From positions 10,451-74,450 of IMG/VR virus record IMGVR_UViG_3300007722_000007: a stretch of 64,000 bases of DNA. One strand, written 5' to 3'. This DNA is from a virus. Every line of letters starts with the position of its first letter. Position 1 is the stretch's first letter. The notes beneath the pieces are model-generated. The model ran no database searches. It saw nothing but the letters and a program-made list of their open reading frames with translations, and was not told the origin of the DNA. Positions 7,753 through 49,700 of this stretch are shown here, in pieces. Both the position numbers and the translations under genes were made by a program.

Positions 7753-7764
7753 TATCCGATCATC

Positions 7765-18757: not shown

Positions 18758-21700
18758 TTGTCTATTAAGGACCCCATGACTGACACGCTCTCCCCCATTC
18801 GCGATTACGAGTACAAGTCGTTAACCGGTCAATTCAATATAGATGAAGCGCTTGGGATCATTGAATGCTTCGTGGCGGGCATTGGCAATAAGGATTCCGT
18901 CGGGGATGTATGCCTTCCGGGCTGTTTTACGAACTCGCTAAAAAGAAGAAAGCCACGGGTTGTTTGGGGCCACAATTGGAACGAGCCCATTGGGAAGGTC
19001 CTTGAAATATACGAGGTCGGCCCAAACGATCCGCGGCTACCGACAAAAATGAAAAAGGCCGGCATTGGCGGACTTTATGCAAAGGTCCAATTTAATCTAA
19101 AAGCAGAAAAGGGACGCGAGGCATTTGCTAACGTCGGGTTTTTTGGGTTTGACCAAGAGTGGTCAATCGGCTACAAAACGTTAGATGCGGTATTTGATAG
19201 CACCCAGCAGGCCAACCTATTAAAAGAAGTAGAGCTGTACGAAGTCAGCCCTGTTCTCCATGGGGCGAATCAGTTGACAGGGACGATATCCATCAAGTCT
19301 GATGAGCCCGCCGCGGATCCTGCTAATAATTCAGCACTCGCCGGCCCCAATGGTGCTGAGATGAAAAACCAAGTAACTGCGATTTACGAAGCGGTTACCA
19401 ACCCTATTAATACCGTGGTTGGAAGAGCGGCGGATTTAACGCGGGCGCTGTCTGCGCACTTTGGCGGCCCCGTTCGCCTGGTTAGTGCCGACCACGATAT
19501 TGCCATCTTTGAAATGGGAGCCGGACAATCTACGGAAACGATGCGGGCCACATACCATTACGACGGTGATGAATTCATGTTTGGAACAGCGCAACAGGTG
19601 CGACCAGAAACAATTTATATTCCTATTCATTCTTCGCTGGGTAGCAGGGAAAATGGGGAAACAATCGCGCCCGGCATCACATTGGCGATGCTACCGGCAA
19701 TCGGCCAAAATATTCTGGATGTGCTGACATTCTCGGCCGATAAAAAGGATAGTTGCTGTGATGAGTGCGCTATCCACGGCGGCTCTTGCGGGGATTCAAA
19801 ATCGGCGATGACCCTGTCCGAGTTCAAATTAGCGAACCCTGGCACCCATGTAATTATTAGTCCAACCGATCCGGTGGAATCGGCGGATATTTTTGACACA
19901 GTTAGAACGGTTAGCGAATATCACGGCTTCTCAATAAAAATTTTGACCGAGGGGATTGTTGTTCAAAACTACGACACCCTGCAACCAGATGCCATAACCG
20001 CAATCACGACCGTACTCAGCGGCATTGAGGCAAAGGGGCTACGACCAAGTCTCAATAGACGGCGTACAAACATGAACCCGATGACGGCCCGCAACGCCGA
20101 CAATGATGAATTTGTCTTAGAGGGAATCCCGACAATTAATAGGGGTCGCGGGGTTATCGATCCAACGCCGGGGAGCGATGCAAATGTCCCCAATTTGAAC
20201 CGAAATCGTCGCGGGGCCGAAATGATGCCATCGGTGCCACAGCCGCGCGAGGTCCCCGAAGAAATTCCTGAAGTTGCGCCAGCGATACCGCGTAGGAAGC
20301 CAGACGAAGAACCCGAAAAAGTTCCAGAAAAAGTTCCAGAAAAAGAACCTCAAAAGGAACCAGGGCGTCCACCACCGATAACCGTTCCACCAGAACGCGA
20401 ACCATGGAAGACCCCGCCGCGCCCCGTGCCAAAACCGGAACCAGCGCCGACGCCGCCACCAAGACCAGTAACGCCTCCGATTCCAGAGCGACCAAGGGTC
20501 CCAGATGCACCACCAGTGCCAGTACGGCCACTAGTCCCTGTCGGCCGGGCAAGCACGGCTAATCCGAGCGGGAGCATGAGCTCTTCTCTTGAGAGCATAG
20601 ACACCGAGATGGATGCCATTAACCGACGATTAGCTACCGCCTCGCTAACTAACACCTTTGAAAATACGAACCGTTCAGCTCCGGAATTGATCCGGGACAG
20701 ACGAAGACTACAGCAGCTGATCCAGCAGCGGTACGCAATTGAGCGGAGTAGAGGAAACGATGCAAGCTCATTCACTGGGGAAAAACTGCCGGACGCTGTT
20801 TCCGCGCGCGGAAACATTGGCGGCTCTAGGCAGGCCCAAGCGGAATTGGCGAGAAATATATACCTAGCTCGCCAGCACGGTGGGATGTCTCTCGATCAAG
20901 CATCACACGAATTTGGAAAAACCAGAGAAGAAATTAGACAGTTGGAAGTACGCCACATAAGCTCGCTGCGGAATCTCGGCGAAACTCATCCAAATAGATT
21001 GTCGCGCAGAGCGCTGGACAATCCGTCCATCCCGCTTTCTAGCGATTCTATCGATTTGTTGAAGCGCAGACTTGATGGGGAGACACTCGACGAAGCAGCA
21101 CAGAGACTTGGGACTGACAGATATTCCGTTCGTAGATCAGAACAACTAGCCTTATCAAAATTGCGAAATTTTTTAGAATTAAATGACGATATAGATCTGC
21201 CAGTCGGAATGCAATTAGCAATTGACGCGCTGGCAATGGCGGAGGACGTCAGCGATTTAAAAGACGATAACGCCAATCAGGATTTAACGGATGCGGTACC
21301 CGATGTTGTATCGGGGAATTTTGGTACCGATGCCCCAACTGGGTCGATGGCGTCAATCTTGCGGATGTCATCAGATAATGACAATGAGCGGAGCGGGCCA
21401 GACGAAAAATTAAATAGACGCCTTTACGACAAATACGGCGATGACTCGATTGATAAACTTGCAAAAGATAACGATCTTTCCAAGAATGAAACTATTGCGC
21501 GAATTCGTGGCCATGCAATAAATCTCTCAGCATCCGAGAGCCCGCGACGCGCCGAGATGCGCTCCCTTGTAAATAGACACCGGGATTCTGTAACGGAATC
21601 CGATAGAAGAATATTAAAATTACGCCTCAACGGCGCATCCCTGGTCGACACAGCCGACGAAACCGGTTTATCGCGGGAGGAAGTACGGCAACGAGAACAA

Positions 21701-24700
21701 AAGGCTATTTCTAAGCTTAGGAAACTATCTGGGTTGGCGGATGATCAGCCAACGGTGATCCGGTCGACATTCGGAGCCGACGAAAATGGACCTTATATTG
21801 TTCAAGCACTGTCGGACGGAACGGAATCAACCCGCACAATCGGGCCAACGGAATTTGACAAACAGTTTAATTATGCATCCGCAACATCTTCCTTTGATGA
21901 ATTCGCACGAATATTAGAGGATGATAATTTCAACAGCAGTCCAAGCGGATCAATGAAATTCGGCACCAAAAAACACAGGGCCGGCGACTCGGTGGCAACT
22001 CTTAATAAAGACGGAGAATACGAGAACTACGACATACAAATTGATAGAACGAATCCGGATAAACCGTTTATTCGCGCTCGGCGCGCGTCGTATCCGGAAA
22101 TTGGACAAAAACCAATTCATGAATTAATTGGCGAGCGTATGCCAAACGGTCCAGAATTTGATGACGGTCAGAACACTTACTGGACACGCCACCAGGATCA
22201 TCACGCATTTGTTTCGTCGGCAGAAGCTGATATTCTGGAAATCGCATCAAAAACAGGACCAATAAAATTTAAGGACGGCATAATCTCCGGTCATTATGTC
22301 GACGGTAATGGAAAGGAAATTAATTTCTCGATTACGCCGTCTCTTACTACAGGTCGGGATAGCGGCCGGAATCTTGTTTTATTTAATTCCAGCGAAAGCG
22401 AATTCGGTATTCAGTTCCACAACGCCGGGAAGGTTGAAAACGTCGTCCCCAATGTCATTGAAGTGGCGATGTCCGATAAGGAAAAATTGGACGCACTTCT
22501 CCAGACCGGTACTGGAAAAAGGCTGGCTACGGCCGGGCGCGGATTAACTCATCAATGGTGGAAGCAATCAACATGGCAATTCCGTTATGGAGGTAAAGAC
22601 AGTGCCTCAAAGACCATCACAAAAGATCCACAGACGGATATTATTGCCCCAGACGCCGATGACCTAATAGCCAAAGCCGACAGGCTCGGTGTTTTTAACC
22701 CAGCCGTGGACATGGGCATTGATCCAAAATCGGATCAGGGCAAAAAACTTACCGTTGTCACAAGCATCGCGAACCGATACAGCATGAGTGGGACATTATC
22801 AGAAAAACAGTGGGCCTATTTACGAAGCCTACTTAAAGGTTTTGATGACAGCGGTGTTGCGCCAAGTCGGCAGGGCGCAACAGATATCCCAATCCTCAGG
22901 GTTGACGGACCGGAAAACCTACCAGGGCCATCGGACGTGTCGCCAGAAGCCCCCGAGGACGACACATGGGCGGAGAAACTGGCAAAAGTGGATTCCGTTG
23001 ATCTTTCCGATATGACGCGTAGTCATGTAGATATGGACACCGGCGAAATAACGCGTTATGCAACGGTAAATATCGGTGATACCAGTCGCCAGTCAAACCG
23101 GTATGTTGTCGCGGACGAAAACGGCGTTCTTCGTAAATGGAATCATCCACGCGGCGCAGATCAGCAGGGCTGGGAAAGAGGCGGAGGATTACATTGGCCG
23201 GCAAATGAGGTCGGTGATGAATACGATGAACTGGTAGAGCGTGTTAACTTCCAGCGCGGTCGGGTTCCAAACGAAGAAGCCGTGATGATAAGTAGTAAGC
23301 CGTGGGTAGAGGAAGCAAGATTGCGCAGGGCGTCCGGTGAAGATATAGATGCCGAAGATGTTGAAGCTGAATATCGGGAGCTTGGACTTTACGGGATGGA
23401 CATGACGCGACCGGACGGATGGGATGAAAGCGATACCCATATTACGATAGGCAGAAATAATACCACCGAGAGCATTGTTGATGCCGTGAGCGCCCATATT
23501 AAAACCGGAAAACCGTTGCAATTTGGCTACAATAAAAACGACGGCACACCAACGACGACGAGAGTTCTGCGTTCGGCGCGGATGGGGAAAAATCCGCATA
23601 CCGGAGTCCACTATGTCATTGGCGGAGACGGCATAGACGAAAAAAATTACCGAGTAGATCGGATAGTCGGCTACGATAAAAATTTAGATAAGAACGCAAG
23701 TAAGCCTAAAACTGATCCGCCGAATACGCGATTTAGTGGAGAACGGCAGACCGGTGGCGGAAGCGGCGAACGTCGCCCGCGCGATAAGCCAGCCGATTCA
23801 GGCGAAGAAGCACGGCGAATACGGGAAGATGAGGCAGACCCCGGCGCCTGGGGCGACAATGTGGATAATGAAAACGACAGACGATCCAGGGAAAGGGCGC
23901 CTCGCGAAGAGAGAGCGCCTCGTGAAGAGAGAGAAGCGCCCAAAAAGGAGCGCTCCGGAAATACTGCGCCCCGCGAACGGGAAATGATAAGAGTCGGAAC
24001 ACGCGGGGTGATTGGAAAAACTATTGCCATTAGTGGCTCGGTTAATAATAAGGAAAAAATTGGTCAGTTATTGGATGCGGCTCGTTCTAATAATAGAGTC
24101 TCGTTTATGTACGGCAACAAACCGTATACCGTTTCGTTTCTTGATGTCGAGGCGGGCGCCTCATTATCGGAGTTCTCGGATCTGTGGTTTCTCCACGCTA
24201 CTGATAGCGACGACAATATACGGAAAAAATTTGATGTCTCTGAGATAAATATGGATAGACCCAATGATCCGGTGGCGTCGGGTAGGGCGATCGGATCAAT
24301 ACTCACCGGCGCAGAGCGAACACCGGGTAGGCGGAATTTTGTCAATATTCCGCTGGGGGTTATGGTCGCCGACCATAACAGACAGAGGGAACAAGCGCGG
24401 ATATCGCACAAAAAATCTACCGATTCCACCGACAATTCAATAAGCGGCTCCATGGACCTCACTCCGACACGAGTCAATAATTATTTTCCTCCGTCATACT
24501 GGACACCGAATAAGCATGATGCGAGATACGCAGCAATGCCCCGCGAAGAACAAGACCAAGAATTGCAAACGATTATATCCAGACTCCATTCGGATGCCCC
24601 CATTGACGCGGCGCAGACCAATGACCTCCTGGATAGATTCGCGGCTATCGATCGAGTTATGCGCACGGATGGCAAATCTTACGTCGATGAATTCGGCATA

Positions 24701-27034
24701 GAAATTGAGAGAGCCCCAAATGGGGAGTATTTGCTTACCGGCAACGTGGATATAAGCGTCTTTGAAATGGCAAATCCGTCGGGTTCAATGGGGCGTTACG
24801 CAAGGCCAACTAATTCGTCAGATCGCGCAATGGATGATTCCTATAATGCGCAAATATACAATGAGCTGAATGATTTAATGTCGTCAACTTCCGATGCGGA
24901 CGCAATAAGGCAACTTGCTCGTCGCCATGGAACGAGTGAGCATAATATACGCAGGCGACTCAATGTGGTCGACAGGGAACGCGCACGTGAAATTTCCGCC
25001 CTTGACAGGGTCGGCGATATTCAGGATGATATCGATCGTGGGGATATATTATTTGACGACCTAGAAATGACCCTTGATTTAAGCTCATCGGATTTTGACA
25101 CAGTTAGGAATATCGACTACGTATTAGGCGAGCTCGATCTCAGATACAGCAGTAATAGCCCCAGCGGGAGCATGGCATTGCGACGCGGCGAGGACCTGTC
25201 AAGCAAAACAACGGACGAACTGCGAGAGTTATTTAATGAATCAATTGAACAACTCTTTGGATCCGAGAGGCCTCATCCCAAGGATAACGCAACAAGATCA
25301 AGGTTTTTGCGGGACATTGAAAATATCGGGTCAGAAATTCAATCTAGATTCTTGGCCAGTCCAGAAGCCGTAGCAATTAGAAATAATATTAACGGGGATG
25401 ACCCAAGCGGGAGCATGTCCCTGCATCCAAGTGGAGGTCAACCCAAAATACCATTAAGCGGTAGCCGCCTAATCGATAGACGGCTTCAAAATGTGTACGG
25501 TCCAGATGATTGGGAATCTGTCGCTTTGCAAATAGGCGCAAGATTCACCAACATGGAAAATAGGGACTGGGAAAACCCATCCATGGATGACCTGATGGAT
25601 CTTCACCACCTACTAGACATGAGGGCCAGTGAAACAATCATAGTCGACGGCCTCCCGGAGGTTTTTGATGGATTTACCTATGATGTCCTTTCTATCGCCG
25701 GCGACCTAGATATAACGCCAGAGAATGTTGTTGGTTATGCGTCGCGGGGTCGCGATTTGGCCGAAATCAAGCAGATGGCCGGGATGTCCCCATTTGAGCG
25801 AGCAGAAAAAATGATCCTGATTGATAGGCGTAAGAAATTTGAAAACATGCTTGATTTGAAAAAACAAGAGCTCGGCGATGGCTACGACAGCTGGCTCGAT
25901 AGCGCGGTAGAAATAAATAACGGAATTTCATTTGATGAGAACGGCAATCCGAGAGACCGGGATTACATAGAATCACGCGGTGGGCCGTATGGCGGGTTTT
26001 TCGTATCGCCCGAAACCGGCGAGCCGGCCGATTCTAAATTAAAAGACACGCTCGGAACTTTCCTTGAAGATCTGTATAACGCCCCGTCATATCAGCCCCC
26101 CGGCGGTCCTAGCGGGTCAATGGCCTATATCGAGCAACGTTACGACATTAGGCCGAATCCAGATGGTTCGTGGTCCATAATTGATACGCATAATAATAAT
26201 TCGCCGACCGGAGAGGCATACGGAAGACGCGAGGATGCGCTAAGTGCGGCCAGACGCATGGATAGGGGGCCGAGTACGCAACGGGGCAGTTTGCGTGCGA
26301 GAAATTCTCCAAACCCACAAGCCACGCCCGATCAGGGGCCGTCACAAAGCCCGCCGGCGCAGACTCAAGATTTGACCCAAGAACAGCTGTCGTTTGATGA
26401 CGGCCCATCTGGGTCAATGATGGGGAGATTGCCTGGAAGTAAATGGATTTCAAATGACCCTCTCCGCCGCCACGGAGAAGAAGTTACGAAGCGCCATGCC
26501 GAAATAGCGATACAGAATTATCATCGTGGCCCAGCTTCAATGCCATTCGGGGGTGCCGAGGATGCGAGTAATGAAATGCTATTCAAGGGGTGGGTGGTGG
26601 CGGACTCGTCCCTAGACACCCTTTTAGGAAGACTTGAATATTTGGATAAAGTCCATACGGGAGGTTTGGATAGGGGCCGCACGGGGGGCCTAGACAGAAC
26701 CCGTATGGGTATTCCCGGGGAGCCATTTAGCACGCCGGAAATCAGGGAAAGTTACCCCGATACACCACTGGTGGATATGACTTCCGCCATCGTAACCGAA
26801 ATTGGGCATGTTCTGGCATATCTTCTCAAACTACAACGAAGGCGTAATTGGTTCCATATGAACCTAAAACGGAGAATGGAAAAGACCAATAACTACCTTA
26901 TGGCCGACCAATTTGATTCAATGAATGACAGCCGAAGCGGGATAGGCCGAGAGGAGAAAGACTCTTTGGTATCGGGTAAATTCCCACGGTATATATTGCC
27001 GTCTATCGTCAGCATGGTTGCGCAAAAATCATGA
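18758..27034 (+). CDS. HK97-family prohead protease fused to a ~2550-aa multi-module extension
   Basis: The N-terminal ~180 aa carry DSVGD, VVWGHN, PIGKV, WSIGY and LYEVSPV (His/Ser catalytic motifs). Then come a tag repeat, a Pro-rich linker and 9 GSM-delimited modules. The start may be ATG 18776. Confidence 0.88.
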   Translation: MSIKDPMTDTLSPIRDYEYKSLTGQFNIDEALGIIECFVAGIGNKDSVGDVCLPGCFTNSLKRRKPRVVWGHNWNEPIGKVLEIYEVGPNDPRLPTKMKKAGIGGLYAKVQFNLKAEKGREAFANVGFFGFDQEWSIGYKTLDAVFDSTQQANLLKEVELYEVSPVLHGANQLTGTISIKSDEPAADPANNSALAGPNGAEMKNQVTAIYEAVTNPINTVVGRAADLTRALSAHFGGPVRLVSADHDIAIFEMGAGQSTETMRATYHYDGDEFMFGTAQQVRPETIYIPIHSSLGSRENGETIAPGITLAMLPAIGQNILDVLTFSADKKDSCCDECAIHGGSCGDSKSAMTLSEFKLANPGTHVIISPTDPVESADIFDTVRTVSEYHGFSIKILTEGIVVQNYDTLQPDAITAITTVLSGIEAKGLRPSLNRRRTNMNPMTARNADNDEFVLEGIPTINRGRGVIDPTPGSDANVPNLNRNRRGAEMMPSVPQPREVPEEIPEVAPAIPRRKPDEEPEKVPEKVPEKEPQKEPGRPPPITVPPEREPWKTPPRPVPKPEPAPTPPPRPVTPPIPERPRVPDAPPVPVRPLVPVGRASTANPSGSMSSSLESIDTEMDAINRRLATASLTNTFENTNRSAPELIRDRRRLQQLIQQRYAIERSRGNDASSFTGEKLPDAVSARGNIGGSRQAQAELARNIYLARQHGGMSLDQASHEFGKTREEIRQLEVRHISSLRNLGETHPNRLSRRALDNPSIPLSSDSIDLLKRRLDGETLDEAAQRLGTDRYSVRRSEQLALSKLRNFLELNDDIDLPVGMQLAIDALAMAEDVSDLKDDNANQDLTDAVPDVVSGNFGTDAPTGSMASILRMSSDNDNERSGPDEKLNRRLYDKYGDDSIDKLAKDNDLSKNETIARIRGHAINLSASESPRRAEMRSLVNRHRDSVTESDRRILKLRLNGASLVDTADETGLSREEVRQREQKAISKLRKLSGLADDQPTVIRSTFGADENGPYIVQALSDGTESTRTIGPTEFDKQFNYASATSSFDEFARILEDDNFNSSPSGSMKFGTKKHRAGDSVATLNKDGEYENYDIQIDRTNPDKPFIRARRASYPEIGQKPIHELIGERMPNGPEFDDGQNTYWTRHQDHHAFVSSAEADILEIASKTGPIKFKDGIISGHYVDGNGKEINFSITPSLTTGRDSGRNLVLFNSSESEFGIQFHNAGKVENVVPNVIEVAMSDKEKLDALLQTGTGKRLATAGRGLTHQWWKQSTWQFRYGGKDSASKTITKDPQTDIIAPDADDLIAKADRLGVFNPAVDMGIDPKSDQGKKLTVVTSIANRYSMSGTLSEKQWAYLRSLLKGFDDSGVAPSRQGATDIPILRVDGPENLPGPSDVSPEAPEDDTWAEKLAKVDSVDLSDMTRSHVDMDTGEITRYATVNIGDTSRQSNRYVVADENGVLRKWNHPRGADQQGWERGGGLHWPANEVGDEYDELVERVNFQRGRVPNEEAVMISSKPWVEEARLRRASGEDIDAEDVEAEYRELGLYGMDMTRPDGWDESDTHITIGRNNTTESIVDAVSAHIKTGKPLQFGYNKNDGTPTTTRVLRSARMGKNPHTGVHYVIGGDGIDEKNYRVDRIVGYDKNLDKNASKPKTDPPNTRFSGERQTGGGSGERRPRDKPADSGEEARRIREDEADPGAWGDNVDNENDRRSRERAPREERAPREEREAPKKERSGNTAPREREMIRVGTRGVIGKTIAISGSVNNKEKIGQLLDAARSNNRVSFMYGNKPYTVSFLDVEAGASLSEFSDLWFLHATDSDDNIRKKFDVSEINMDRPNDPVASGRAIGSILTGAERTPGRRNFVNIPLGVMVADHNRQREQARISHKKSTDSTDNSISGSMDLTPTRVNNYFPPSYWTPNKHDARYAAMPREEQDQELQTIISRLHSDAPIDAAQTNDLLDRFAAIDRVMRTDGKSYVDEFGIEIERAPNGEYLLTGNVDISVFEMANPSGSMGRYARPTNSSDRAMDDSYNAQIYNELNDLMSSTSDADAIRQLARRHGTSEHNIRRRLNVVDRERAREISALDRVGDIQDDIDRGDILFDDLEMTLDLSSSDFDTVRNIDYVLGELDLRYSSNSPSGSMALRRGEDLSSKTTDELRELFNESIEQLFGSERPHPKDNATRSRFLRDIENIGSEIQSRFLASPEAVAIRNNINGDDPSGSMSLHPSGGQPKIPLSGSRLIDRRLQNVYGPDDWESVALQIGARFTNMENRDWENPSMDDLMDLHHLLDMRASETIIVDGLPEVFDGFTYDVLSIAGDLDITPENVVGYASRGRDLAEIKQMAGMSPFERAEKMILIDRRKKFENMLDLKKQELGDGYDSWLDSAVEINNGISFDENGNPRDRDYIESRGGPYGGFFVSPETGEPADSKLKDTLGTFLEDLYNAPSYQPPGGPSGSMAYIEQRYDIRPNPDGSWSIIDTHNNNSPTGEAYGRREDALSAARRMDRGPSTQRGSLRARNSPNPQATPDQGPSQSPPAQTQDLTQEQLSFDDGPSGSMMGRLPGSKWISNDPLRRHGEEVTKRHAEIAIQNYHRGPASMPFGGAEDASNEMLFKGWVVADSSLDTLLGRLEYLDKVHTGGLDRGRTGGLDRTRMGIPGEPFSTPEIRESYPDTPLVDMTSAIVTEIGHVLAYLLKLQRRRNWFHMNLKRRMEKTNNYLMADQFDSMNDSRSGIGREEKDSLVSGKFPRYILPSIVSMVAQKS
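20072..20170 (+). repeat. 33-aa shared tag, copy 1 (MNPMTARNADNDEFVLEGIPTINRGRGVIDPTP)
   Basis: Near-identical to 29134-29232 and 47100-47198; shares 46 identical nt with copy 2. Confidence 0.95.
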
Positions 27035-27169
27035 CAGCCCTATCCCGTGGTCCAATAATGCCATCCGCTGCCGCGGCAGTGAGAAAAGAGATAAACTTGA
27101 TTGATAAATGCATAAAATTTTCACAACAATTACAGAGTTCAAGTAATAGCAGTAAATAGATACACAAAA

Positions 27170-28993
27170 ATGACCAGCGATAGCGATCACACCCCAAAAG
27201 GCGCTGTTATGGGTTATGCTAAACCTGCACAACAAAACGGAGGTAAAGCGAAATACAACTGCATGGTAACTGGAGAGAAAAAACAGTTTCCCTGCGGCGG
27301 TTGCTCCAATCCGAAAGGTTGTCTTTCAACAACCATGCAGTTCAAGGAGCAAACAATGGCAACGGACGAAAAGTCAGTCGTAAAAATCGGTGCAGACGGT
27401 GACTTAATTGAATGTGCAAAAGGATTAGACGTAAGTGAGTGTGGTTACGTTAAGGGTCAGTTAGCTTGTGGAAAATGTGGTGCTGTTGCGGTGTCAGTGA
27501 AAGTAGACGTAGTTGAGGAAGATGAAGCGCTTGAAATAGCCGAGGATGATGAAATTATGAAAAATACGCCAGATAACGCAACACAAACTCCTACGCGTAA
27601 GCGCGGCTCACGCATTGCCCTTGAGGAAAAGGCGGCAGTGCGCGCATACGGAGATACTCTTACCGAAGAGGACGAAGCTCTTCTTGCCGAAGAAGAGAAG
27701 AAGAAGCAAAAGCTAAGAGATCTGGCCACCGAAGCCGAAGATGCGGCCGAAGCCGAAGATGCGGCCGAAGCCGAAGGTGTTGCTGAGACCGAAGGTGTTG
27801 CTGAAATCGCCGATGTGGCGTTGCCGGATCCGGCAACAGACACCGCCGACATAACTGGCGACGTGGCAGACGAGGCCTACGAGACCAGCCGCATACCGGC
27901 TGAAGAGGAACCGCAAATGGATGAAATTCTTGCGATGCGTTCGGCGCCAAGAAGAAAGAAGCCGGCCGCTCCAGTTGCGCCGGAAGCAGAAGATGACGCA
28001 CTGGTTGACGAAACCGACGACGAAGTCCCTGGCAGACAAATAATGGAGCAAAGAAGACTCCGATCAATGGGATACAAATCGGGAGAGTTTGGTGCCGATG
28101 CCTTCGTGTGTTCACTGGAGCGCAAGGTCTACTCAAGCGGCGCTGGTGTTTGTGAAGGTTGCCCAGGCGGTTGCGTAAAAGAAGGATCAATGCCTGCGCT
28201 TTTGGAGATTGAAGGTCGCGCCGAAGACATGTTCAGCGGCAAGGTTCTTGATTCCGGATACTCGGACATCGCGGATATCTTTGTTGTTGATGTTGAGCGC
28301 AAGGACGGGAAACCAATTGAGGCCTTCTTTGACGGCTCAACGGGCGAGGTTCTTGGTTGGCATATGCTAAATCAGGAAGTTCTTGAAGTCAAATCCGGAT
28401 TCCAGCCAACCGAATTGATTAGTTTTTCGGAAGCGGCGTCTATTGCAACCAAGAGCATTCAGGGTGATGTCATGGCGGTTGAGGCCGATATCTTTGAGGG
28501 CTTTGATGCGTACGCCGTTGAGATAGAGGGCATTGATGGAAAATCATACGATGTGTTCGTGTCTCTTGACGGCGATGTGCTTGGCTATGATGAGTACACC
28601 CAAGAAGAGGCTTCGTCTATTGAGGCCGAAGCCGCAGAGATAGCCCTTAAGCGTGCCTATTCAGACGAGCAACGCGCAGGACACGCATCCAAGGGGAATG
28701 CACTTCCGGATGGCTCTTTCCCAATTGTTGATGAAACCGATCTCCGTAATGCAATTACGGCCCATGGTCGCGCCAAGAACGCAGACGTTGCGAAACTGCA
28801 CATCATGGAGCGCGCCATGTCCCTCAAGCTCGAGAATTTAATTCCCGAGAACTGGATTGACGAAGAAACAAAAAAGAAGTTTGCCTCTTCGGGGAAATCA
28901 GGAGAAGACAACTTCCTATCAACGCTTCTTGAATTTGAAATGCTCGCCCAGGAAGCCGATAATTCTTCAAGTATTTACAACGAGTCAGAATAG
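27170..28993 (+). CDS. Acidic head-associated protein with Cys clusters, two PepSY-like domains and a C-terminal conserved-looking domain
   Basis: CxxC clusters; ISFSEAASIATKSIQGDVMAVEAD...YAVEIEG...YDVFVSLDGDVL is PepSY-like; C-terminal ALPDGSFPI...DLRNAI...IPENW. Confidence 0.6.
   Translation: MTSDSDHTPKGAVMGYAKPAQQNGGKAKYNCMVTGEKKQFPCGGCSNPKGCLSTTMQFKEQTMATDEKSVVKIGADGDLIECAKGLDVSECGYVKGQLACGKCGAVAVSVKVDVVEEDEALEIAEDDEIMKNTPDNATQTPTRKRGSRIALEEKAAVRAYGDTLTEEDEALLAEEEKKKQKLRDLATEAEDAAEAEDAAEAEGVAETEGVAEIADVALPDPATDTADITGDVADEAYETSRIPAEEEPQMDEILAMRSAPRRKKPAAPVAPEAEDDALVDETDDEVPGRQIMEQRRLRSMGYKSGEFGADAFVCSLERKVYSSGAGVCEGCPGGCVKEGSMPALLEIEGRAEDMFSGKVLDSGYSDIADIFVVDVERKDGKPIEAFFDGSTGEVLGWHMLNQEVLEVKSGFQPTELISFSEAASIATKSIQGDVMAVEADIFEGFDAYAVEIEGIDGKSYDVFVSLDGDVLGYDEYTQEEASSIEAEAAEIALKRAYSDEQRAGHASKGNALPDGSFPIVDETDLRNAITAHGRAKNADVAKLHIMERAMSLKLENLIPENWIDEETKKKFASSGKSGEDNFLSTLLEFEMLAQEADNSSSIYNESE
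27731..27805 (+). repeat. 18-nt coding tandem repeat (EAEDAA x2, EAEGVA, ETEGVA)
   Basis: GAAGCCGAAGATGCGGCC occurs twice, followed by degenerate copies. Confidence 0.85.
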
Positions 28994-29007
28994 ATCGGCG
29001 GTGCGGC

Positions 29008-32000: not shown

Positions 32001-32781
32001 CGATGTTCGCTTACCGCATACAACAAGGCCCACCAGGCCCCACTCCAGGGAATGGGACACTAGCGACCTAAATGACTATGAGACAATTTTGGCCGATGGC
32101 AGGGTAACCCTATATGGTGACGATCAGCCTGACTTCCCAGATCAATATAATGCAGGGGCCAACCCAATAACGCTTAGCCAAATCGGGATTAAAAACGGCC
32201 GATTGGCTGAAAATCTCAATCAAATTATCGGCCCGATGGATAAAGATGAGCGTAACGGAAATTTTGATTTTTTGATAATGCTCAATGACACCCTGACGCC
32301 AACCGCAGCCAATGCATTGGGCCGTTCGCCAAGCATTTTGATGCAGACCGTCTATGAAATGATTGGGGCAATGGCCCGCAACTCCGACCAAGTTGCTGGG
32401 GATGCGGATTCGCCAGCTGCGATAAATCTTGTCAGAAACACCAATATCGCACTCGCGCAAATGATTGGGCTCAATAAGGACGGCGGGATGCGCAGTACCC
32501 GCCGCGGCTTCTTGATTCCTAAAAACTATGGGGGAATTAGGGAGTCCAGGAATTGGCGGATTGACGAAAATGAGCGGACCGCATTGATGGACGAAATAGG
32601 AAAGATGCTAAGATCTGATGGGACACTTGATCTGGAAGCTCTGGCCAAATTTCTAACATCTCGGAGAAAGCGGTTTTCCCCAAAATCGCGCAGATTTATT
32701 AGCCCTGAGGCAATAAAGGAACGCCGCCGACGCTACTTTGACGAACGGTATCAGAGGGACAAGAAAAACAATGAACAATAA
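29008..32781 (+). CDS. Multi-module putative virion cargo protein (OGFr/DUF1810-like domain plus triple internal repeat)
   Basis: Tag copy 2, two GSM linkers, HYDWWAFP motif, and three DF/DYxxML[NS]D repeats. Confidence 0.7.
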   Translation: MADAENTKSHNDVRQNRRTHRKSNFLTSQKGIGSPIGGPQRDMNPATARNADNDLFVLEGIPTINRGRGVIDPTPTGSMAGSKRSKRRKARKFVNDLIGDSDVTDPEFDSADIDEDTPLSLLDYEQDSLFPEDDFIVRRSGVPEIFEDEPWDDSVDYASAWREYLRNSGLDDTIDPNDFDIDESDLAALPFYKPQSDILGRTYPGTSVAKPSSGPKKFDDYHNKTKYAGDRYVITQQALTLARHRDLVAKSRWDTIHNAHYDWWAFPIDRGSGGYGNKYNIAGKPLSRLKRNKRFLNNVAEAIHIQALALGWDIDTDDYIADIDWDTGQDPWLAYPTRFWKMTRSAQILGLDKEFNSLLLLQASLSEGGIRFGRREYWDNPGPPGDSTPLKKRKYEYGDGTVSGSMAGNKKNTDSNWRGDFSEQLASGFVGGMAGLRKRMKSDSLIANPLHEYFLQRTTSMGDNPTTGRRPSDLVINPYAGENIIGAAEARDWFDFAIMLNDTQSWVLENANNGEQINDGLFFQNSFPRMALAKLLMGQMGRDDSEMNTVANLRRAGRKMMAENNIDGADFPILAGDIANPFIKKVESTPNGWLVTRHDDARKLWFWFRDEREQALADLGRAITKDRQKNKLADPAQWLDGSGVKAFFKNRASKQSPIIGPLGGSTPKRMELSKITLPPGRFANRDKIAALRNNGNFNNHANPVDTWLDNVSRGDALLSGRRPIPSTRWPMDELETRDWFDYWLMLSDSLPEITARDFEVLREAGPHIRTSPNEWLPQDDEQWNENKLINETQRRHDKVKFVMAEALKYLSALARPDENDNNDVVWEDMRNAGQSINQRWGIDAQINAEINLAEMQGRDWPFREYVAPEKLNKDVIKFGQLGNFATATPDGWIVNTKHADGEMKPRAWRISDSERDSLYDMIGAILNTGEENSPLGVDNATGDSELDLGMFLENRAQFFKSDEPTFKYSNRFGDDDDAPSARSRMLSYTDSDQAGDYVDVRLPHTTRPTRPHSREWDTSDLNDYETILADGRVTLYGDDQPDFPDQYNAGANPITLSQIGIKNGRLAENLNQIIGPMDKDERNGNFDFLIMLNDTLTPTAANALGRSPSILMQTVYEMIGAMARNSDQVAGDADSPAAINLVRNTNIALAQMIGLNKDGGMRSTRRGFLIPKNYGGIRESRNWRIDENERTALMDEIGKMLRSDGTLDLEALAKFLTSRRKRFSPKSRRFISPEAIKERRRRYFDERYQRDKKNNEQ
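29134..29232 (+). repeat. 33-aa shared tag, copy 2
   Basis: MNPATARNADNDLFVLEGIPTINRGRGVIDPTP. Confidence 0.95.
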
Positions 32782-32876
32782 CCGAATAATACCCATCGGC
32801 ACCCTGTTCCAATTGTCATACGGTATTCCTATGCTAATTTGTTATCGGGTCTATAATTGGATCACGCAGAGATGCA

Positions 32877-41238: not shown

Positions 41239-44200
41239 GTTCCAGCTCGTAATAGATGGGTCAAATAATTCCGCGTATGGGGTGATTGCCACGATCGCCA
41301 ACGCAGATAAATACATCGGCAATATGTCACACGGTGCAGATTGGGCTAAGTGGGCTGGAAAATCGGGTTTTAGGAAGCTGGAGATAATCGAATCACTTGA
41401 CATGCACTTGTCCCTTGGCGATGTCATCCCGTTATCTAGTGATGAAGTTTTGAAATTAAAAAGCCTGCTTAGCGATAGCGCGTTTGGGGCACTGAGTAAC
41501 TTTGTCGAACAGAATCTATTATTAACCAAAAATAATCCAGAGCCAGAAAATCTGATTGAGGACGACGAGCCAGAATACGAACTTGTTGCCGATTGGCCAA
41601 TTACCGATATCGCCCTAAGTCTGATCGAGGTTCAGTTTAAGATGAACGCCGTTCACTACAAGGCGAAGTCGTTCATTTCGGACTCATCGGCATCTTCTTT
41701 TTCACTTAGCACAAAGGGCGTGCGAGCAATGTGGGACCCTAATTTTCCTGGTGGTGGCAGATGGCGCTGCCCTCCAGAAAGTGGATACACCGCCGGCCAA
41801 TTTACCAATAGATTTGGGCGGGGGTGTTTGCCCGGCGCAGCTCGCAGAATAGGCCGAAGAATGCTGTCCCTTGCTGATGCCGGCGTACTAAAGCGGACCC
41901 TAGGAGACCGTGGCGGGATACTTGAGGCCAGGGGATTTTTAAGGGACGAGCGTGGACTGGCCGCCGCTGGGAGACGTTCGGCCAACCGGATTGAAAGACA
42001 GGGGCGTCGCACCGAAAGGCGCATTGCGGGATTGGCCAAAGATACCGATGATTTAAATAATCCAAATCCTCAGCGCCCAGCCGCAAATCGGTCAGAACGA
42101 CGCAAAAAACGAGGCAACAGACTCGCCGCGTTTGCTGATCGGCTGACAGGAGAGCGGGTAACCCCAAGAAACAATCAAGCGAACCAACCAGATAATCTCG
42201 CAGATGAATCCCCTGTAACTGTTTCCACGGCGCGCATGAATCGGAGAATTAACAATAGCGCCAAGCCATTAGAGCTTGAACCGGGCACGGTATTAACCGA
42301 TGAAAGAAACACCACCGATCAACTATTACTCGACCAGGGTTTCGCCGAGATTGAGCGAAGTTTAGATGAGATTGAACAAAGTTTAGATGATAATAAACTC
42401 CGTAGAAAAAGGCGAAGCAAAACTCCAGTACGCCCACACATAATTGACAGAATCAGTAAGCGTCGCCAAGACGGCAGATTGCGGATTTCCGATGTGCGCC
42501 CCAGGGTCAGGGAAACCCGCGGCCCAGATAATATCGGGCCGCGAGAGACAATGCGCGAACGAGCCGCCTTACGGCTTGAAAGACTGGCCCAAAGATTAAC
42601 GGCCAGAAATAACCGTACGGTTACGCCGAACACAACTATCCAAAGTCCGGAACCGGCGGTCAATAGCCAATTAGGGCAACGGGCGCGGATGAGGCAGGTA
42701 GTGCTAAGTAAGGATAGTCCACGGCGGGTACTGTACGGCAATATCATTCCGTCGCAACGCACAGCGCGGAATCTAAAGGGGTGGGAAGCATATACCGCTA
42801 TCGAGCAACAATCATTGGAGGCGTCAGCTACGAAAGCGCAAAAGCGCCTCACTGACGGCTGGAGGACGCGGTTGGGGCTGTCTCCGGCCGACAATTTGGA
42901 CGAAGACGCAATTGACACATGGATGAAGGCATTAACGGTACGCCAGCCCCGAAAAGCCGCCGTACTCCAGAACCAGGCTCACAACGCCGTTATCCTTGAT
43001 GATTTCCTTGACCCAATAACATCTAATACATCCAAATTAAAAACTGAAAATTGGGCCGCAATCAAGCCGGCCATGAGAGAGTGGATCATCGCTGATGCCG
43101 GTTTAACGGCCCCAGCGCGTGTATCCCCAAAATCACGTAAAACGCCCGTACCGAATAAGCCTCCGCAGCGACCTCGGCTAGTACGGTCTGGCGGTCAGCT
43201 TGCATTGCCGCCAGGGCCAGCGCCGACACAGGGCAATCTTGTTCCGGACGCCGACGTGGTGGATGACGAATTGGTATTTGATACTCAGCCGGAGCCAAAC
43301 AACGAACTTGCACCAGTCGGGGTCGATGTAGTTACAAGCACAAATGAACACGGGACAATTGACGCTGCAGAAAACGCCTTGTTCATATATGAAGAAAATA
43401 CGAAACTATACAGAGACCCGATTTCCGGCATGTATAAAGAAGACTATAAAGACTTGCCGATAACAATAGATACGGAAGTGAACACAATGCAGCCGTTGCC
43501 CCTGATGCAGCGGAAAAAGAAAAATGGGGCCATCGTCTCGTATCCGAAAATTCGTAATCACCAAGGGTTTGTTGGTGGCAAGGCCGTCATAGTGCAGCTG
43601 TCACTCGCTCCAAACACAACAAGGCCCGGAGAGGGTCACAGCGTTTCAACATGGGCCGAAGCAAGAGGGGCTATCTGGAATGATTTGCCGGAAAGCGTTA
43701 AACGCGAAAATCCAGGAATAGAAATCGTAGAAATACCCAGAATAAACGGAGTACAGCAAACAGCCGACACCGTTAGTTCATTTAATAGCTCTCGGCGCTC
43801 AAGCTACCGCAATAGCACGGAAATGGCGGGAACCGATATTTCAACCCAAGATGTATTTCTTAGAACGCGAACAAGCTCGTGGAATTTTGGCCACACCGAT
43901 GTCGCTATGGTGATCTCTTCCGTAAACACGGCCCTTGTCAGCAATCAACCACAAGACTGGATGAAGGCCTGGGCGAAACTTAAAAGCGTGCACGCCGATG
44001 CGACTAGAAAGCTGGAAGCTTCCCTCACCGAGTGGAGAAGGCCGGACAATAAAAATAATTCCCGCCAGCGTCGCGAGTTCGTGCTTGCCGGAGACCTAGC
44101 GGAGACCGTTGAGGCAATTATAGAACGAGTTATGCCTTCGGTTTTTCCGATAATCATTAGTGGCGCACGGAGCGAAATGGAAGAGAGCGCAAAGCTCAGA

Positions 44201-45667
44201 AATAAACTTGCCGTTCGCCGGACTAGGGCGCAATCCGAAGGGCTGAGAATCGTCGGCGGAGTCGATCCGGCTATATTATTCCCGCCAAAATCTGCCGATG
44301 GAGTTTACATAAATCGTACCCCAGCCGAAATTGATGCGTTATATGAAAAAAATAGAGCTTTTGGGTATTTTGAGCAACTGCCCCTTGTCCTAAACCCCGG
44401 CGAATCCTATGTGGCGACGGAACTAAACGATTCCCAAATAGATTTTATGGATACCGTACAAAAAGCCCGTGACGCCTCACACGATTACCGTACCGGACTC
44501 GCACTGGAAGACGCCCATCAACAACGAGCTCAGCATCTGGCGACTCTCGGCCAAAGTGGATTTAATGATTTACCAGTACAGGTCACCCTTGAAGAAATGG
44601 AATTATTGCTTAAAACACTGGACAGTGAAGGGCAGCCGATGTACATACCTATTGTCCGCGGAATCAGCAGAAGGGGCAACGACGATAGGTCGCCACGCGA
44701 AATGGCGCAAGAATATATTTCCGGGGATAGATTTATTACTGCCGGCCAAGGGGGATCCGCCGGCGGAGAAGGGGACAATTTTTCCACCGCATCAAACCCA
44801 ATTGGCGGATACGACCCAGGCGACGAAGCGCGCGGTTCAATCCTGGCATTGATACCGCGTTCATCGCGTCTGAGCACCACGCAAGAAGTAGAAAAGATTG
44901 CCACGCATGTTCGGGATATCCATAAATTCATTAATAGATCCATCAACCACCCAAGCGAACATGTTCAACCTTCTGGTGTAAGTGAGCGCTATGAGACGGA
45001 TCCATCTGCGGGAAGGCGGACCGCCTGGGAGAACCTGTATCCGAATGAAACCGCACGACCGAATATGCCGGCGATCGTTGAGTGGGATGATTTTGATGGT
45101 TTGCACGCCCTTCAAAAAGCAGTCATGGTCGCCATTCTGTCCGACGGCATGCACTTAGCTGACTCTTCGGAATTTTCATTCTCAGTCTACGACAACCCAC
45201 GCGATGATTTCCCTAGCGCCTCCGAGCCGATCGGTGGTCTAGAGTGGTTTAAGAACACTCGGGCAGAAATTGTCGGATGGTATATACAGCTCGAAATTAA
45301 AAGGAATGCGCTGTTGGCTTCCGGCGCAGAGACATCAGAACAGCAGCAGGCAATAAGTCGCCTCGTTAACGCGCAGACATATCTCAATTTCCTTACCGAC
45401 GAAGTGACAATGAGCCCAATTCTCGGATACGACGCATATCTGTCGGGCGGAGGTAATAGTTTCTCCATAGACAAAGATCCACGACGGCTATTCCTTTCAA
45501 TGTTCCCAGGCAAATACGGAATGTACAACCACGTCATGGTGGTCAATAGGTCGGCCTTAATCGTGCTGGATTCGCCCATTTCCTTGGCGTCTGCCATGGA
45601 ATTTATGGACTCCTTCGGGGTTATTATGCCAAACGGCGAGACAATGCATATCTACAAGAGCAGGTAG
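41222..45667 (+). CDS. Large putative cargo protein with an RC-x-GQFT tag and a possible ADP-ribosyltransferase-like C-terminal domain
   Basis: RCPPESGYTAGQFTNRFGRGC, an Arg-rich linker, and C-terminal IVRG...GQGGSAGGEGDNFS...GYDAY...VVNRSAL. Likely start is ATG 41231. Confidence 0.55.
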   Translation: MAQMNKFQLVIDGSNNSAYGVIATIANADKYIGNMSHGADWAKWAGKSGFRKLEIIESLDMHLSLGDVIPLSSDEVLKLKSLLSDSAFGALSNFVEQNLLLTKNNPEPENLIEDDEPEYELVADWPITDIALSLIEVQFKMNAVHYKAKSFISDSSASSFSLSTKGVRAMWDPNFPGGGRWRCPPESGYTAGQFTNRFGRGCLPGAARRIGRRMLSLADAGVLKRTLGDRGGILEARGFLRDERGLAAAGRRSANRIERQGRRTERRIAGLAKDTDDLNNPNPQRPAANRSERRKKRGNRLAAFADRLTGERVTPRNNQANQPDNLADESPVTVSTARMNRRINNSAKPLELEPGTVLTDERNTTDQLLLDQGFAEIERSLDEIEQSLDDNKLRRKRRSKTPVRPHIIDRISKRRQDGRLRISDVRPRVRETRGPDNIGPRETMRERAALRLERLAQRLTARNNRTVTPNTTIQSPEPAVNSQLGQRARMRQVVLSKDSPRRVLYGNIIPSQRTARNLKGWEAYTAIEQQSLEASATKAQKRLTDGWRTRLGLSPADNLDEDAIDTWMKALTVRQPRKAAVLQNQAHNAVILDDFLDPITSNTSKLKTENWAAIKPAMREWIIADAGLTAPARVSPKSRKTPVPNKPPQRPRLVRSGGQLALPPGPAPTQGNLVPDADVVDDELVFDTQPEPNNELAPVGVDVVTSTNEHGTIDAAENALFIYEENTKLYRDPISGMYKEDYKDLPITIDTEVNTMQPLPLMQRKKKNGAIVSYPKIRNHQGFVGGKAVIVQLSLAPNTTRPGEGHSVSTWAEARGAIWNDLPESVKRENPGIEIVEIPRINGVQQTADTVSSFNSSRRSSYRNSTEMAGTDISTQDVFLRTRTSSWNFGHTDVAMVISSVNTALVSNQPQDWMKAWAKLKSVHADATRKLEASLTEWRRPDNKNNSRQRREFVLAGDLAETVEAIIERVMPSVFPIIISGARSEMEESAKLRNKLAVRRTRAQSEGLRIVGGVDPAILFPPKSADGVYINRTPAEIDALYEKNRAFGYFEQLPLVLNPGESYVATELNDSQIDFMDTVQKARDASHDYRTGLALEDAHQQRAQHLATLGQSGFNDLPVQVTLEEMELLLKTLDSEGQPMYIPIVRGISRRGNDDRSPREMAQEYISGDRFITAGQGGSAGGEGDNFSTASNPIGGYDPGDEARGSILALIPRSSRLSTTQEVEKIATHVRDIHKFINRSINHPSEHVQPSGVSERYETDPSAGRRTAWENLYPNETARPNMPAIVEWDDFDGLHALQKAVMVAILSDGMHLADSSEFSFSVYDNPRDDFPSASEPIGGLEWFKNTRAEIVGWYIQLEIKRNALLASGAETSEQQQAISRLVNAQTYLNFLTDEVTMSPILGYDAYLSGGGNSFSIDKDPRRLFLSMFPGKYGMYNHVMVVNRSALIVLDSPISLASAMEFMDSFGVIMPNGETMHIYKSR

Positions 45668-45676
45668 ACTTAGATT

Positions 45677-46641: not shown

Positions 46642-46718
46642 TCTCACGCTACCTTCCCGCGTTCACCAATATTATTGGTACGATAAACGCACACGAAGTA
46701 TTCTGACGCAGGGATAAT

Positions 46719-49700
46719 ATGGCCGAAAATACAGACACTGGTGACTGCTGTCCCATCGCCCCAGATGATGGCGCCGACCAGATAAATCAAAAATCAGTAG
46801 GATTCGGGCCTCGCCGAGTTCGGTCCGACGGCCACGATGTCTTTGTCGATAAAGAGTCCGCCCGGGAAAGATCTCGCCAGCTCGGCTGCATCGGGATTCG
46901 TCAGTATAATTCTGTTTCTGGGGGATTTGTTTGGATGCCGTGCTCTAATGAATCAGATTACCGACGGGTAACCGGAGTGGGAGTTTTAGCCGGACGAAGA
47001 TCAGAGCGGGATTTGTCTAGACGTATTGCCAGAATACTAAAGAAAAAAACCGACGAAGTTAAGGCACTTGGTCCACCGATCGGCGGACCTCAACGGGATA
47101 TGAATCCAGCTACGGCGCGAAATGCCGATAATGACCCATTTGTCCTAGAGGGAATTCCAACGATAAATAGGGGTCGCGGCGTTATCGACCCGACCCCCGG
47201 CTCGGACGTCGCCATCCCCGCTCCGTCAACGCCTGACGCGCCAGAATTAAGCGATACCGCTAATCGAGCAAGCGATATTGATGGCCCCGATCTACCGACA
47301 CGCCCAGATCCGGGCGCTGCCCCTAGTGATAAACCGTCCATAGCGCGTTCTCCTAAAAAGCCATCAACGCGCCGAGCGTCAATCGCTCCGACAGACTCCC
47401 TGGCTCCCAAAATTGACACCGAACCCAGAAGGAACACAGCTAGAGATACTGTACCTGCCGCTACGGGAGCAATGCGTGGCGACAAGGTCACTCCGGCTAG
47501 ATTCATATTACCGGAGAATGACGAACTTGTTCGTCGCGTAAAAGGCGCAATTGCCAAATGGCTTGATGGAACCCCGGAGCGCGAACGCAGTAATTTGCTT
47601 CAGCGGAATGACAGAAGTGGGCGCAACAATTTCTTCGCCCAGATGTACCAAGACGACGCCGCGCGGTCGACGCTGCGGAGTTTCATATGGGGTGATATAG
47701 AAACCGCAGATGCGGCGGTTGCCTATTGGGGTGGCCAATTTGCGGATTCGGCAGACCGCGTCATCACCAAAATCGATACCGGGACGCTTAACGAGGCCGA
47801 CTACGTGGATGCTTTTAGGTTATACCAAAAAGCCGTCTCTCAGGCGCCTGATTTTTCACGGGGGATCATGGACACGTACGCAGTGGCTGATCCCGGAATT
47901 GACGAAGAAGTTTTATTTTCCAACCTGTCCGGATGGACGCTGCCAACAACGATTGAAAGCATGACCCCGAATACCACTCCACTTCAGTCATTTGGGGCTC
48001 AGGGGATTATAGCGATAACGGATATTTTTAGGGCGGCGGTTAGCCAATTAAAGTTTCCCGTGCAACGCGAAAATGCGCAAACCTTTCCGGAGGGGAATAA
48101 ACTTCGTGCCGGTTTTACCGCAAACCGCGCCGTCTACCCGCATGACTATGGAAATGTCTTATTGCGACGCCTGCTCGATGTATCAAATTCCGTCCGTAAC
48201 GCTAATAGCGAGCCAATACGCGAAACCATCCTTGGGTCGGCCCTGAATTCATTCGCAATGTATGTCGCGGCGCATGGCGTTCTGGTCCATGATTCAGATT
48301 TAATGGATAGCTCATTTGGAATAATGAACAATCTTCTTGAACAGTTACTAGCTGACAAAGAATCAACTGCCGTACTAGCAAAAATGGGACAATTATTTGA
48401 TTTGCTAGATACGCATCTTGTTGATTATACCGAAGCTAGAAGAAGAGCGCGCTTAGAAATAATTGCCGCTGCGAAAGAAAATGGATTATTGAGGAAAAGT
48501 GAGGACTTATTTGATAACGATGTGCCGCTTGCTGTCGCAGAGCATCTTGACAACTCAAAACAAGCATTTTCTACAAGAAATGAGCATGTCGCCGCGGTTA
48601 TAGCGCCGATTGGCGAAGATAAGTTGCGAAGAGTAATGCGGGACATTTTCGCGCGCAACAATTATTTAGACGGGAGCACGATAGAGAAATATTCCCCAGC
48701 TTCTCCCGGTGACGCCATAGCTCTCGCTTCCGAATTAAATCCCCCGCAAAGGGACAGGAATATTACCAGGCTCAGCACGGAAAACGCAAAAGCATTTGAA
48801 TCTATTACCTCATATCTCTATTCTGATAATCCAATATTTTTGGTCGACAACAACGACCAAATCCAACTATGGGCAAATTTATTGCAATACGGCAAACGCC
48901 GAATGTTACACCGCACCCTGAAACAAATGAGCCCCAAAAAACGCGCTGAGTTTATGGCCGTAGACCCTGAGACGGCCGATGTCCTTCTTGACTCGGCCAA
49001 GGAATCATGGCTATCCCACAGACAGATCAACGAGGGGTTCGGCCCCGACAATTATCCGCTTGATGACAATATCAACGCCACGCTGACAAACTATCCGATC
49101 GAGGATGTTCATTACAGAATCCCGCAGCGCATTACGGATAGCTCCTCTAATCCGCTTGTCCTGATAGCTAACGCCCTGCGCCTTCGCCAGTATCAGCTGG
49201 ACCGAGTCAACAATAACGATTATACAAATTCCATACGAGCCTTAATCGACGGCCTTCTCGGTGGCAATCCAAAACAATCAAACAAAATTTTTGATTTAAT
49301 GATTCTGCCATCGCCCGCCGCGCTTTTAATTGACCGCTACGCGAATAGCATCCCCAACTTTTTACACACGCTGGGAGAATATGATAACGACATTCAGGGC
49401 AACAATCGTGGTCAATTTAGAAATAATGATTCGGTATACCCCAATACAATGACGGCCCTTGGGGTTTTGGGGGACGCAAAACACGCACTTGCCGGGCTTG
49501 CCGGGAACATGGATGAATATGCCAATATGGCGTCACGGCGAATGGTGCTTATTACGGACGATTTAATTGATCGAGAAAATTACGACATTGATCCACTGGT
49601 TGAAAACTACCTAAACGCCGCCCCTTTTGGGTACGGTCCGAGTGGATCCATGGTCGGGCATATCGGCCAAAACTATCCCCGTGACAAAAGGGAATCTGGA

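Follow-up and report, generated by a model that had tools for sequence, protein, structure and literature searches.

A portable peptide tag on giant polyproteins of an uncultured phage group: a candidate signal for loading cargo into an HK97-type capsid

Giant proteins with no other sequence in common can share one short peptide, and the question raised by the locus described here is what such a peptide does for the phage that maintains it. The window, meaning the whole stretch of DNA analysed, comprises 64 kb (positions 10,451 to 74,450) of the 74.45-kb virus record IMGVR_UViG_3300007722_000007, which is itself a fragment. An examination of the letters alone (the sequence-only reading) had noted a near-identical segment of 33 amino acids (aa), here called tag A, in three otherwise unrelated giant proteins, and had proposed that it acts as a capsid-targeting or ejection signal. 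Of these two roles, capsid targeting best fits the comparative data, and we lean towards viewing the tag as an excisable, portable and disordered cargo-loading (capsid-targeting) peptide of ~48 aa. This interpretation is favored because only giant multi-effector proteins of one phage group carry the tag, because it occurs on five cargo families and on the prohead protease itself, and because it is disordered, precedes flexible linkers, is flanked by likely processing sites, and can be exchanged at one position for a second tag. The three copies, whose reported starts at 20072, 29134, and 47100 proved exact, are as follows.

20033..20170, plus strand: tag A copy 1, in the 2758-aa protease polyprotein (aa 426-471); Lys box from 20033, core at 20072-20170
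29095..29232, plus strand: tag A copy 2, in the 1257-aa protein (aa 30-75); core at 29134-29232
47061..47198, plus strand: tag A copy 3, in the 5437-aa protein (aa 115-160); core at 47100-47198, with a Pro-rich spacer next

A profile built from these copies and run against all six frames of the 74-kb genome matched those three segments and none other, and no further copies of tag A were found in the genome even at E<=100 or with a 37-sequence profile. The carriers are indeed otherwise unrelated, as BLASTP among the giants gave no other similarity at E<1e-3. The 33 residues first described are only part of the unit. Copies 2 and 3 remain similar back to a Lys located 13 residues upstream of the core, and this residue, already noticed in the sequence-only reading, belongs to a K[AGS][LI]G motif that is kept in relatives, from which a unit of ~48 aa was deduced. 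The window contains three copies of tag A and one of a sister variant, A'. The tag A unit opens with the K[AGS][LI]G box, which a short basic/Gly spacer separates from an acidic D-x-D core ending in G-R-G..DPTP. The A-D-x-D, E-G, G-R-G, and D-P-T-P residues of the core were invariant among 31 diverse copies, and the copies within this genome are nearly identical to one another.

The pattern of nucleotide substitution indicates what has preserved the tag. Synonymous and non-synonymous codon differences over the 33 core codons number 10/2, 17/2, and 14/1 for the three copy pairs; these counts bear out the remark that copy 3 differs mostly at synonymous sites and imply strong purifying selection on the peptide. 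The 46-nucleotide (nt) run of identity between copies 1 and 2 (20118-20163 and 29180-29225) is also exact, and runs as long as this arose in 0.05% of trials in which codon columns were shuffled (p ~5e-4), which points to a short, recent conversion tract. The longest identical runs in the other copy pairs are only 14 nt, so the tag appears to be kept by selection on the peptide rather than on the DNA. The suggestion that DNA identity also provides a recombination handle thus survives in reduced form, as a secondary effect seen in this one conversion tract and in the swaps and fusions at tags described below.

The distribution of tag A is narrow with respect to phage group and protein type. A profile search of 1.84 billion (1.84e9) representative proteins returned 39 matches, 36 of them judged true by eye, with a diverged motif. 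The complete carriers are all giant proteins (850-6391 aa, with the tag starting between aa 15 and ~576) of one uncultured phage group, and BLAST showed them to be orthologous to five families of the window: the protease polyprotein, the 1257-aa protein, module 2 of the 1748-aa protein, the 1481-aa protein, and the 5437-aa protein. These five families lie between the portal gene and an HK97-type capsid gene. The loci returned were 6 viral, 27 metagenomic, and one contig binned as Actinomycetota; judging by their sample numbers, the metagenome sample series look like lake metagenomes. All 27 metagenome loci, together with a complete 174-kb relative (G001; 173,962 bp with direct terminal repeats), share one syntenic block that extends from portal-MuF to the HK97-type capsid gene, and in the metagenome loci the tag is always in the same genes. 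The peptide is 40-70% identical across many phages whose DNA has diverged, and the tags inside one genome differ considerably from each other in the complete relative and in the lake phages.

Two tag A subtypes can be present together in one lake-phage genome (L025, L029, L031, L032, L035, and L036). A P-P-P-H..I-Y-E-G subtype is then found on the 1481-like and module-2-like proteins, and the other carriers have the standard subtype, which might reflect docking sites of two classes or a loading process in two steps. Neither tag A nor A' was found in 50,697 GenBank phage records, and cultured relatives match only in the protease domain (actinophage proteases of Gordonia, Arthrobacter, and Mycobacterium phages). 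Searches of Pfam (E<=10), PHROG, and PDB gave no significant or meaningful match over the tag, and the literature searches found no description of it.

The genes that encode the tagged proteins, and those of the candidate receptors considered below, form a plus-strand head module.

16473..18692, plus strand: fusion of the portal protein with a MuF domain, where the head module begins; candidate receptor
18758..27034, plus strand: 2758-aa polyprotein, with S78 protease at aa 16-195, domain X at aa 200-425, and tag A onward
27170..28993, plus strand: 607-aa acidic, Cys-rich protein; candidate hub or receptor
29008..32781, plus strand: 1257-aa putative cargo protein with tag A near its N-terminus
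32877..38123, plus strand: 1748-aa protein, in the order tag B, module 1, tag A', module 2
41222..45667, plus strand: 1481-aa putative cargo protein, with tag B (41765-41827) where most orthologues have tag A
46719..63032, plus strand: 5437-aa polyvalent protein with an N-terminal DUF3721 segment, tag A, and 10 xSGSM linkers
63372..63998, plus strand: major capsid protein, N-terminal 209 aa, truncated by the window end; end of the cargo island

The module opens with the portal-MuF fusion, followed by the prohead protease, which is of the S78 (HK97 gp4) type. After the protease polyprotein come proteins of 607, 1257, 1748, 132, 217, 703, 1481, 141, 189, and 5437 aa, in that order, such that ~44 kb of giant and effector genes separate the protease gene from the capsid gene in an HK97-like head module. 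The full-length capsid orthologue of the complete relative matches phrog_10 and HK97 gp5 structures (E 6e-50). The 2758-aa polyprotein consists of the protease, conserved domain X, tag A, a Pro-rich spacer, and cargo modules separated by nine xSGSM linkers, one of the modules containing sigma-70 region 4, while the 5437-aa protein has Clp_N, NUDIX, and Zeta-toxin domains near its C-terminal end. In the protease polyprotein the tag follows directly on the conserved part of the protease. A prohead protease must be encapsidated.

A more distant relative of the tag had been suspected near position 35769. The segment is a true sister variant, although it gives no score with the tag A profile.

35718..35846, plus strand: tag A' (DGDGDG core) in the 1748-aa protein, preceded by zincin module 1 and followed by the PTGSM linker (35994-36008) with which module 2 begins

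Profiles of A and A' align with an hhalign probability of 92.5% (E 4.7e-7). The segment is 47% identical to the first row of the A' alignment from sister phages, shares all nine of its invariant columns, and is the positional equivalent of the N-terminal tag in free-standing orthologues of module 2. The A' pattern comprises a Lys box, a longer spacer, [FY]-D-P, D-G-D-x-D-G, Q-[ED]-G, and R-P. Sister phages whose proteases are 73-78% identical and whose capsid N-termini are ~60% identical lack tag A, and in G003, G004, and several other contigs A' occupies the very positions of tag A: after protease domain X, at ~aa 267 of the 1481-like protein, and in the protein encoded immediately before the capsid gene. 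A' is more common than A and is the main form in sister phages, being present in at least 145 protein clusters (108-2000 aa) that include HK97-family protease fusions, DUF3721-tag-Zeta-toxin proteins, helix-turn-helix (HTH) arrays, and a DUF3626 protein. Its placement is not strictly N-proximal, as a few proteins have two or three copies and one has a copy at its extreme C-terminus. P0043, P0049, and P0081 represent these arrangements; in the multi-tag polyproteins, each tag is followed after a few residues by a [ST]-G-x-M site and then by another module.

Restriction of the tag to head modules holds for the tag A metagenome loci and fails for one A' gene. In sister phage G002 (L094:8824-12858), a 1344-aa protein with an N-terminal A' tag and Zeta-toxin and ADP-ribosyltransferase domains, whose matches are labeled "minor head protein" and Alt-like in PHROGs, has its gene ~45 kb away from the head module, surrounded by genes for primase, ThyX, and ribonucleotide reductase. 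This arrangement suggests that the tag follows the type of protein or cargo rather than gene position.

A second tag, B, with the pattern RC, 8-10 residues, [RQ]FT, 6 residues, and C, occurs three times in the window.

33573..33632, plus strand: tag B in the 1748-aa protein
39568-39627: tag B in the 703-aa protein
41765-41827: tag B in the 1481-aa protein

Throughout the phage group, tag B is kept on the 703-aa protein and on the first module of the 1748-aa protein. In most phages, members of the 1481-aa family bear tag A at ~aa 220-270; in the window and one close relative, tag B stands instead at the equivalent alignment position. Fusion boundaries fall at tags as well: relatives encode module 2 of the 1748-aa protein separately, with a tag A of its own, and the protease gene of G002 ends exactly where the tag would start. 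The simplest history suggested by these comparisons is one in which the tag forms the N-terminus of a cargo cassette, in front of which other genes have repeatedly been fused.

Structure prediction and sequence context are both consistent with a flexible element. AlphaFold2 models of the tag alone, built on a 31-sequence alignment, had a mean predicted local distance difference test (pLDDT) score of 52.6 and no secondary structure, and a 282-aa model of domain X plus the tag scored 42.6 overall and ~30-35 in the tag region. What these low-confidence models say is limited to this: the tag is predicted neither to fold alone nor to dock on domain X there. A Pro-rich spacer comes after the tag in two of the three proteins. 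The tag thus has the character of a linear docking motif. The acidic core had also been likened to a calcium-binding loop. The likeness is real as a pattern, which is DGDxDG in A' and [DN]-A-D-x-D, without Gly, in A, with no match in Pfam or PDB at E<=10. Free calcium is low in the cytoplasm, where assembly occurs, and calcium-dependent docking is therefore doubtful.

Putative processing sites are found on both sides of the tag. The HK97 gp5 maturation cut is made between residues 103 and 104, and the HK97 record gives the precursor sequence as ..F-N-K|S-L-G-S.. where the mature capsid protein begins. The tag's K-[AGS]-[LI]-G box shares this context, and cleavage may likewise occur there. The equivalent position by alignment in the capsid protein of this group reads ..N-V-K|D-V-Y... 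Downstream, the xSGSM linker (mostly P-S-G-S-M) is present in 23 copies in four giants (nine in the 2758-aa, two each in the 1257-aa and 1748-aa, and ten in the 5437-aa protein; e.g., 20564-20578, 29230-29244, and 35994-36008), and every copy of tag A precedes the first such linker of its protein, as had been observed. In the 1257-aa protein, the PTGSM linker at 29230-29244 immediately follows the tag. The linkers of relatives are of a looser small-small-Met type (A-A-M, A-S-M, and G-A-M), and [GA][SAG]M occurs 191 times in tagged giants against 101 expected, an approximately twofold excess. Of the A tags, 36% have a small-small-Met site in the next 30 aa, compared to 10% of background windows; for the A' tags the corresponding figures are 11% and 6%. 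The xSGSM element is probably a polyprotein processing site. Flanked by an HK97-type Lys site and often by a linker, the tag looks excisable, and if both sites were cut it would be released as a small peptide, by analogy with the T4 targeting sequences and the HK97 delta domain. Several related candidates were rejected: K[AGST][LIV]G is not a general linker, the 30 capsid orthologues compared do not share a small-small-Met cut at their delta junction, and no homology of the tag to the gp5 delta domain was found.

These features can be assembled into a loading scheme, whose steps (binding, packaging, cleavage, delivery, and the identity of the receptor) we infer from comparison. The tag would bring giant multi-effector polyproteins into the assembling HK97-type procapsid through one common internal receptor, for which the inner face or delta domain of the capsid protein, the portal-MuF fusion, and the 607-aa acidic protein are candidates. 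A single tag would load a whole string of modules, with the protease traveling at the head of one chain. After shell closure, proteases would cut the Lys box upstream and the xSGSM (small-small-Met) linkers downstream, excising the tag and freeing the modules, which would leave with the DNA at infection. The 607-aa protein has no family match and lies directly after the protease polyprotein in every relative examined; separately, it has N-terminal Cys clusters and an acidic A-E-A-E-D-A repeat tract and could be a cargo scaffold or hub.

Several observations weigh against this scheme. The protease of one sister phage has no tag at all, implying that the protease itself needs none. Outside the tags, K[AGST][LIV]G is neither enriched nor recurrent in the giants, and a linker straight after the tag, at the frequencies given above, is common but not universal. 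The tag has no homology to the C-terminal tail of HK97 gp4 (hhalign probability 0.2%) and no sequence relation to the capsid N-arm; its K-A-L-G-G likeness to that arm, considered as possible mimicry, is not significant (hhalign probability 0.03%, hmmsearch <1 bit).

Precedents for elements of this kind are known, and they differ from the tag in instructive ways. Encapsulin cargo-loading peptides are short and disordered, are attached by a flexible linker to unrelated cargo encoded beside an HK97-fold shell gene, and occur at various positions. The tag resembles them in being a conserved short peptide on unrelated cargo encoded next to such a shell gene and in its disorder and flexible attachment (pLDDT 52.6; Pro-rich spacers). 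Its motif differs from the encapsulin consensus motifs; moreover, the setting is a virus rather than a bacterial compartment, the cargo would pass into a host instead of being retained, and the tag itself seems to be excised. The gp4 protease of HK97 reportedly has a C-terminal encapsidation tail (Duda et al., 2013, as cited in PMC7411985). That protease and capsid belong to the same families as those found here, and the element is likewise C-terminal to the protease domain, whereas the present tag is not homologous to the tail and also occurs on non-protease proteins.

Capsid-targeting sequences (CTS) of the T4 internal proteins IPI-III and Alt, as well as the longer N-terminal propeptides of ejection proteins in SPN3US/phiKZ-type phages, direct internal or ejected proteins into the prohead and are removed by the prohead protease (PMC7411985). 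Like these, the tag is a short peptide common to unrelated proteins, and Alt-like ADP-ribosyltransferase cargo also occurs in this phage group. Unlike the T4 CTS, it is unrelated in sequence, ~48 rather than 10-20 aa long, and N-proximal (starting at aa 15-576) rather than at the extreme N-terminus. T4 uses an S77 protease and a scaffold core, whereas the present system is of the HK97 type, with an S78 protease and a capsid protein that has a delta domain, and its cargo would be polyproteins on the megadalton (MDa) scale. In phage P1, a ~30-aa N-terminal signal loads the 250-kDa anti-restriction protein DarB, with a domain of the capsid protein as scaffold (PMC9024508). That signal has no sequence similarity to the tag and is known on one protein, in contrast to five families and the variants A, A', and B. 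Finally, the tagged proteins resemble the packaged polyvalent proteins of phages (Iyer et al., 2017; PMC5512222) in being multi-domain late-operon effectors (Sigma70_r4, Clp_N, NUDIX, and Zeta_toxin; HTH arrays in relatives), with the qualification that zincin peptidase motifs were read by eye only. A term search of that paper turned up no shared address peptide, xSGSM-type linkers, or prohead-protease fusion. The kind of element is thus known. Pfam, PHROGs, PDB, and the literature searched contain no description of this sequence family, nor of its presence on five cargo families plus the protease, the A/A'/B alternatives, or the coupling to linker-separated polyproteins in an HK97-type phage.

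Four other explanations were weighed against cargo loading. The tag might be an ejection or threading leader, in which case the polyproteins would be packaged by other means and exit intact, the N-proximal tag would engage the portal or tail channel for ordered exit, and the linkers would be cut only in the host, e.g., by zincin peptidase modules. The N-proximal placement in tag A carriers, the portal-MuF fusion that adjoins the cargo island, and the proposal of Iyer et al. (PMC5512222) that the metallopeptidase domains of polyvalent proteins process them once delivered all agree with such a role. It is nevertheless unlikely, since A' proteins can have two or three internal tags, or one at the C-terminus, the Lys site and frequent linker make the tag look excisable, so that it would be cut from most modules, and the prohead protease, which acts inside the capsid, is also tagged. 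The ejection half of the original proposal is weakened on the same grounds.

Quite unlikely is a role as a protease-docking element (exosite) that recruits the prohead protease or the zincin peptidases for efficient linker cutting. Putative cleavage sites on both sides of the tag and the presence of one tag per polyprotein in the window would be expected of an exosite, but several proteins of relatives carry tag B without A or A', the 1748-aa protein has its first xSGSM linker (aa 318-322) a long way ahead of its A' tag, the majority of the 23 linkers lie thousands of residues from the nearest tag, and the protease polyprotein would not need to recruit itself. It is also improbable that the tags bind each other, possibly through a metal held on the acidic loop, to bundle cargo as an inner body for enclosure. 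The invariant acidic D-x-D core (DxDxDG in A') and the near identity of copies inside this genome are compatible with self-association; the quite different tags within the genomes of the complete relative and of lake phages, the absence of folding propensity in AlphaFold2, and the general consideration of low free calcium at the assembly site are not. The idea that the tag is mainly a DNA-level recombination hotspot with a functionless peptide can draw on the 46-nt run, on the Erf-like annealing protein and exonuclease encoded by the phage, and on the fusions and swaps at tags, yet it is scarcely tenable, being largely refuted by the great excess of synonymous changes and further opposed by a peptide conserved across phages with diverged DNA and by identical runs of at most 14 nt in the other copy pairs.

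The remaining observations concern neighboring genes. The 189-aa gene (46072-46641) and the N-terminus of the adjoining 5437-aa protein (46719-47000) both match DUF3721 (PF12518), and many relatives have a shorter DUF3721-tag-Zeta-toxin protein directly upstream of the capsid gene. The minus strand of the window encodes a tail sheath, neck genes, ParB and PAPS-reductase genes, a recombination set, and the large terminase. The terminase frame (13872-16202, minus strand) specifies 776 aa, whose middle (~aa 210-537) has no terminase profile match, suggesting an insertion or a split-gene arrangement; in relatives, only open reading frames of 436-439 aa that match the C-terminal half (aa 459-776) were seen beside the portal gene. 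At 7195-9713 (minus strand), a PAPS-reductase-family gene lies between two ParB-like genes, a pairing known from DNA-modification or regulatory modules of phages and prophages.

How phages choose the proteins that their capsids carry is understood in only a few model phages, and in the phage group considered here, which is widespread and uncultured, all the large cargo families bear one conserved peptide. Cargo loading by this tag could explain how the protease and capsid genes came to be ~44 kb apart, with effector genes in between, and the A/A'/B swaps and fusions at tags show how cargo repertoires are shuffled. More tentatively, the HK97-like freshwater myoviruses of this uncultured group may run an encapsulin-like loading system with interchangeable A, A', and B tags, excised at the Lys site and linkers, in which every tag brings one polyprotein, up to 5-6 thousand residues long, into the capsid and the protease heads one of these chains. 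HK97 is the best-understood assembly system and assembles in E. coli, and because the capsid and protease of this group are close kin of those of HK97, the question is directly testable. If true, this would represent natural programmable packing and delivery of more than 1 MDa of protein per set, and it would also offer a protein-delivery tag.

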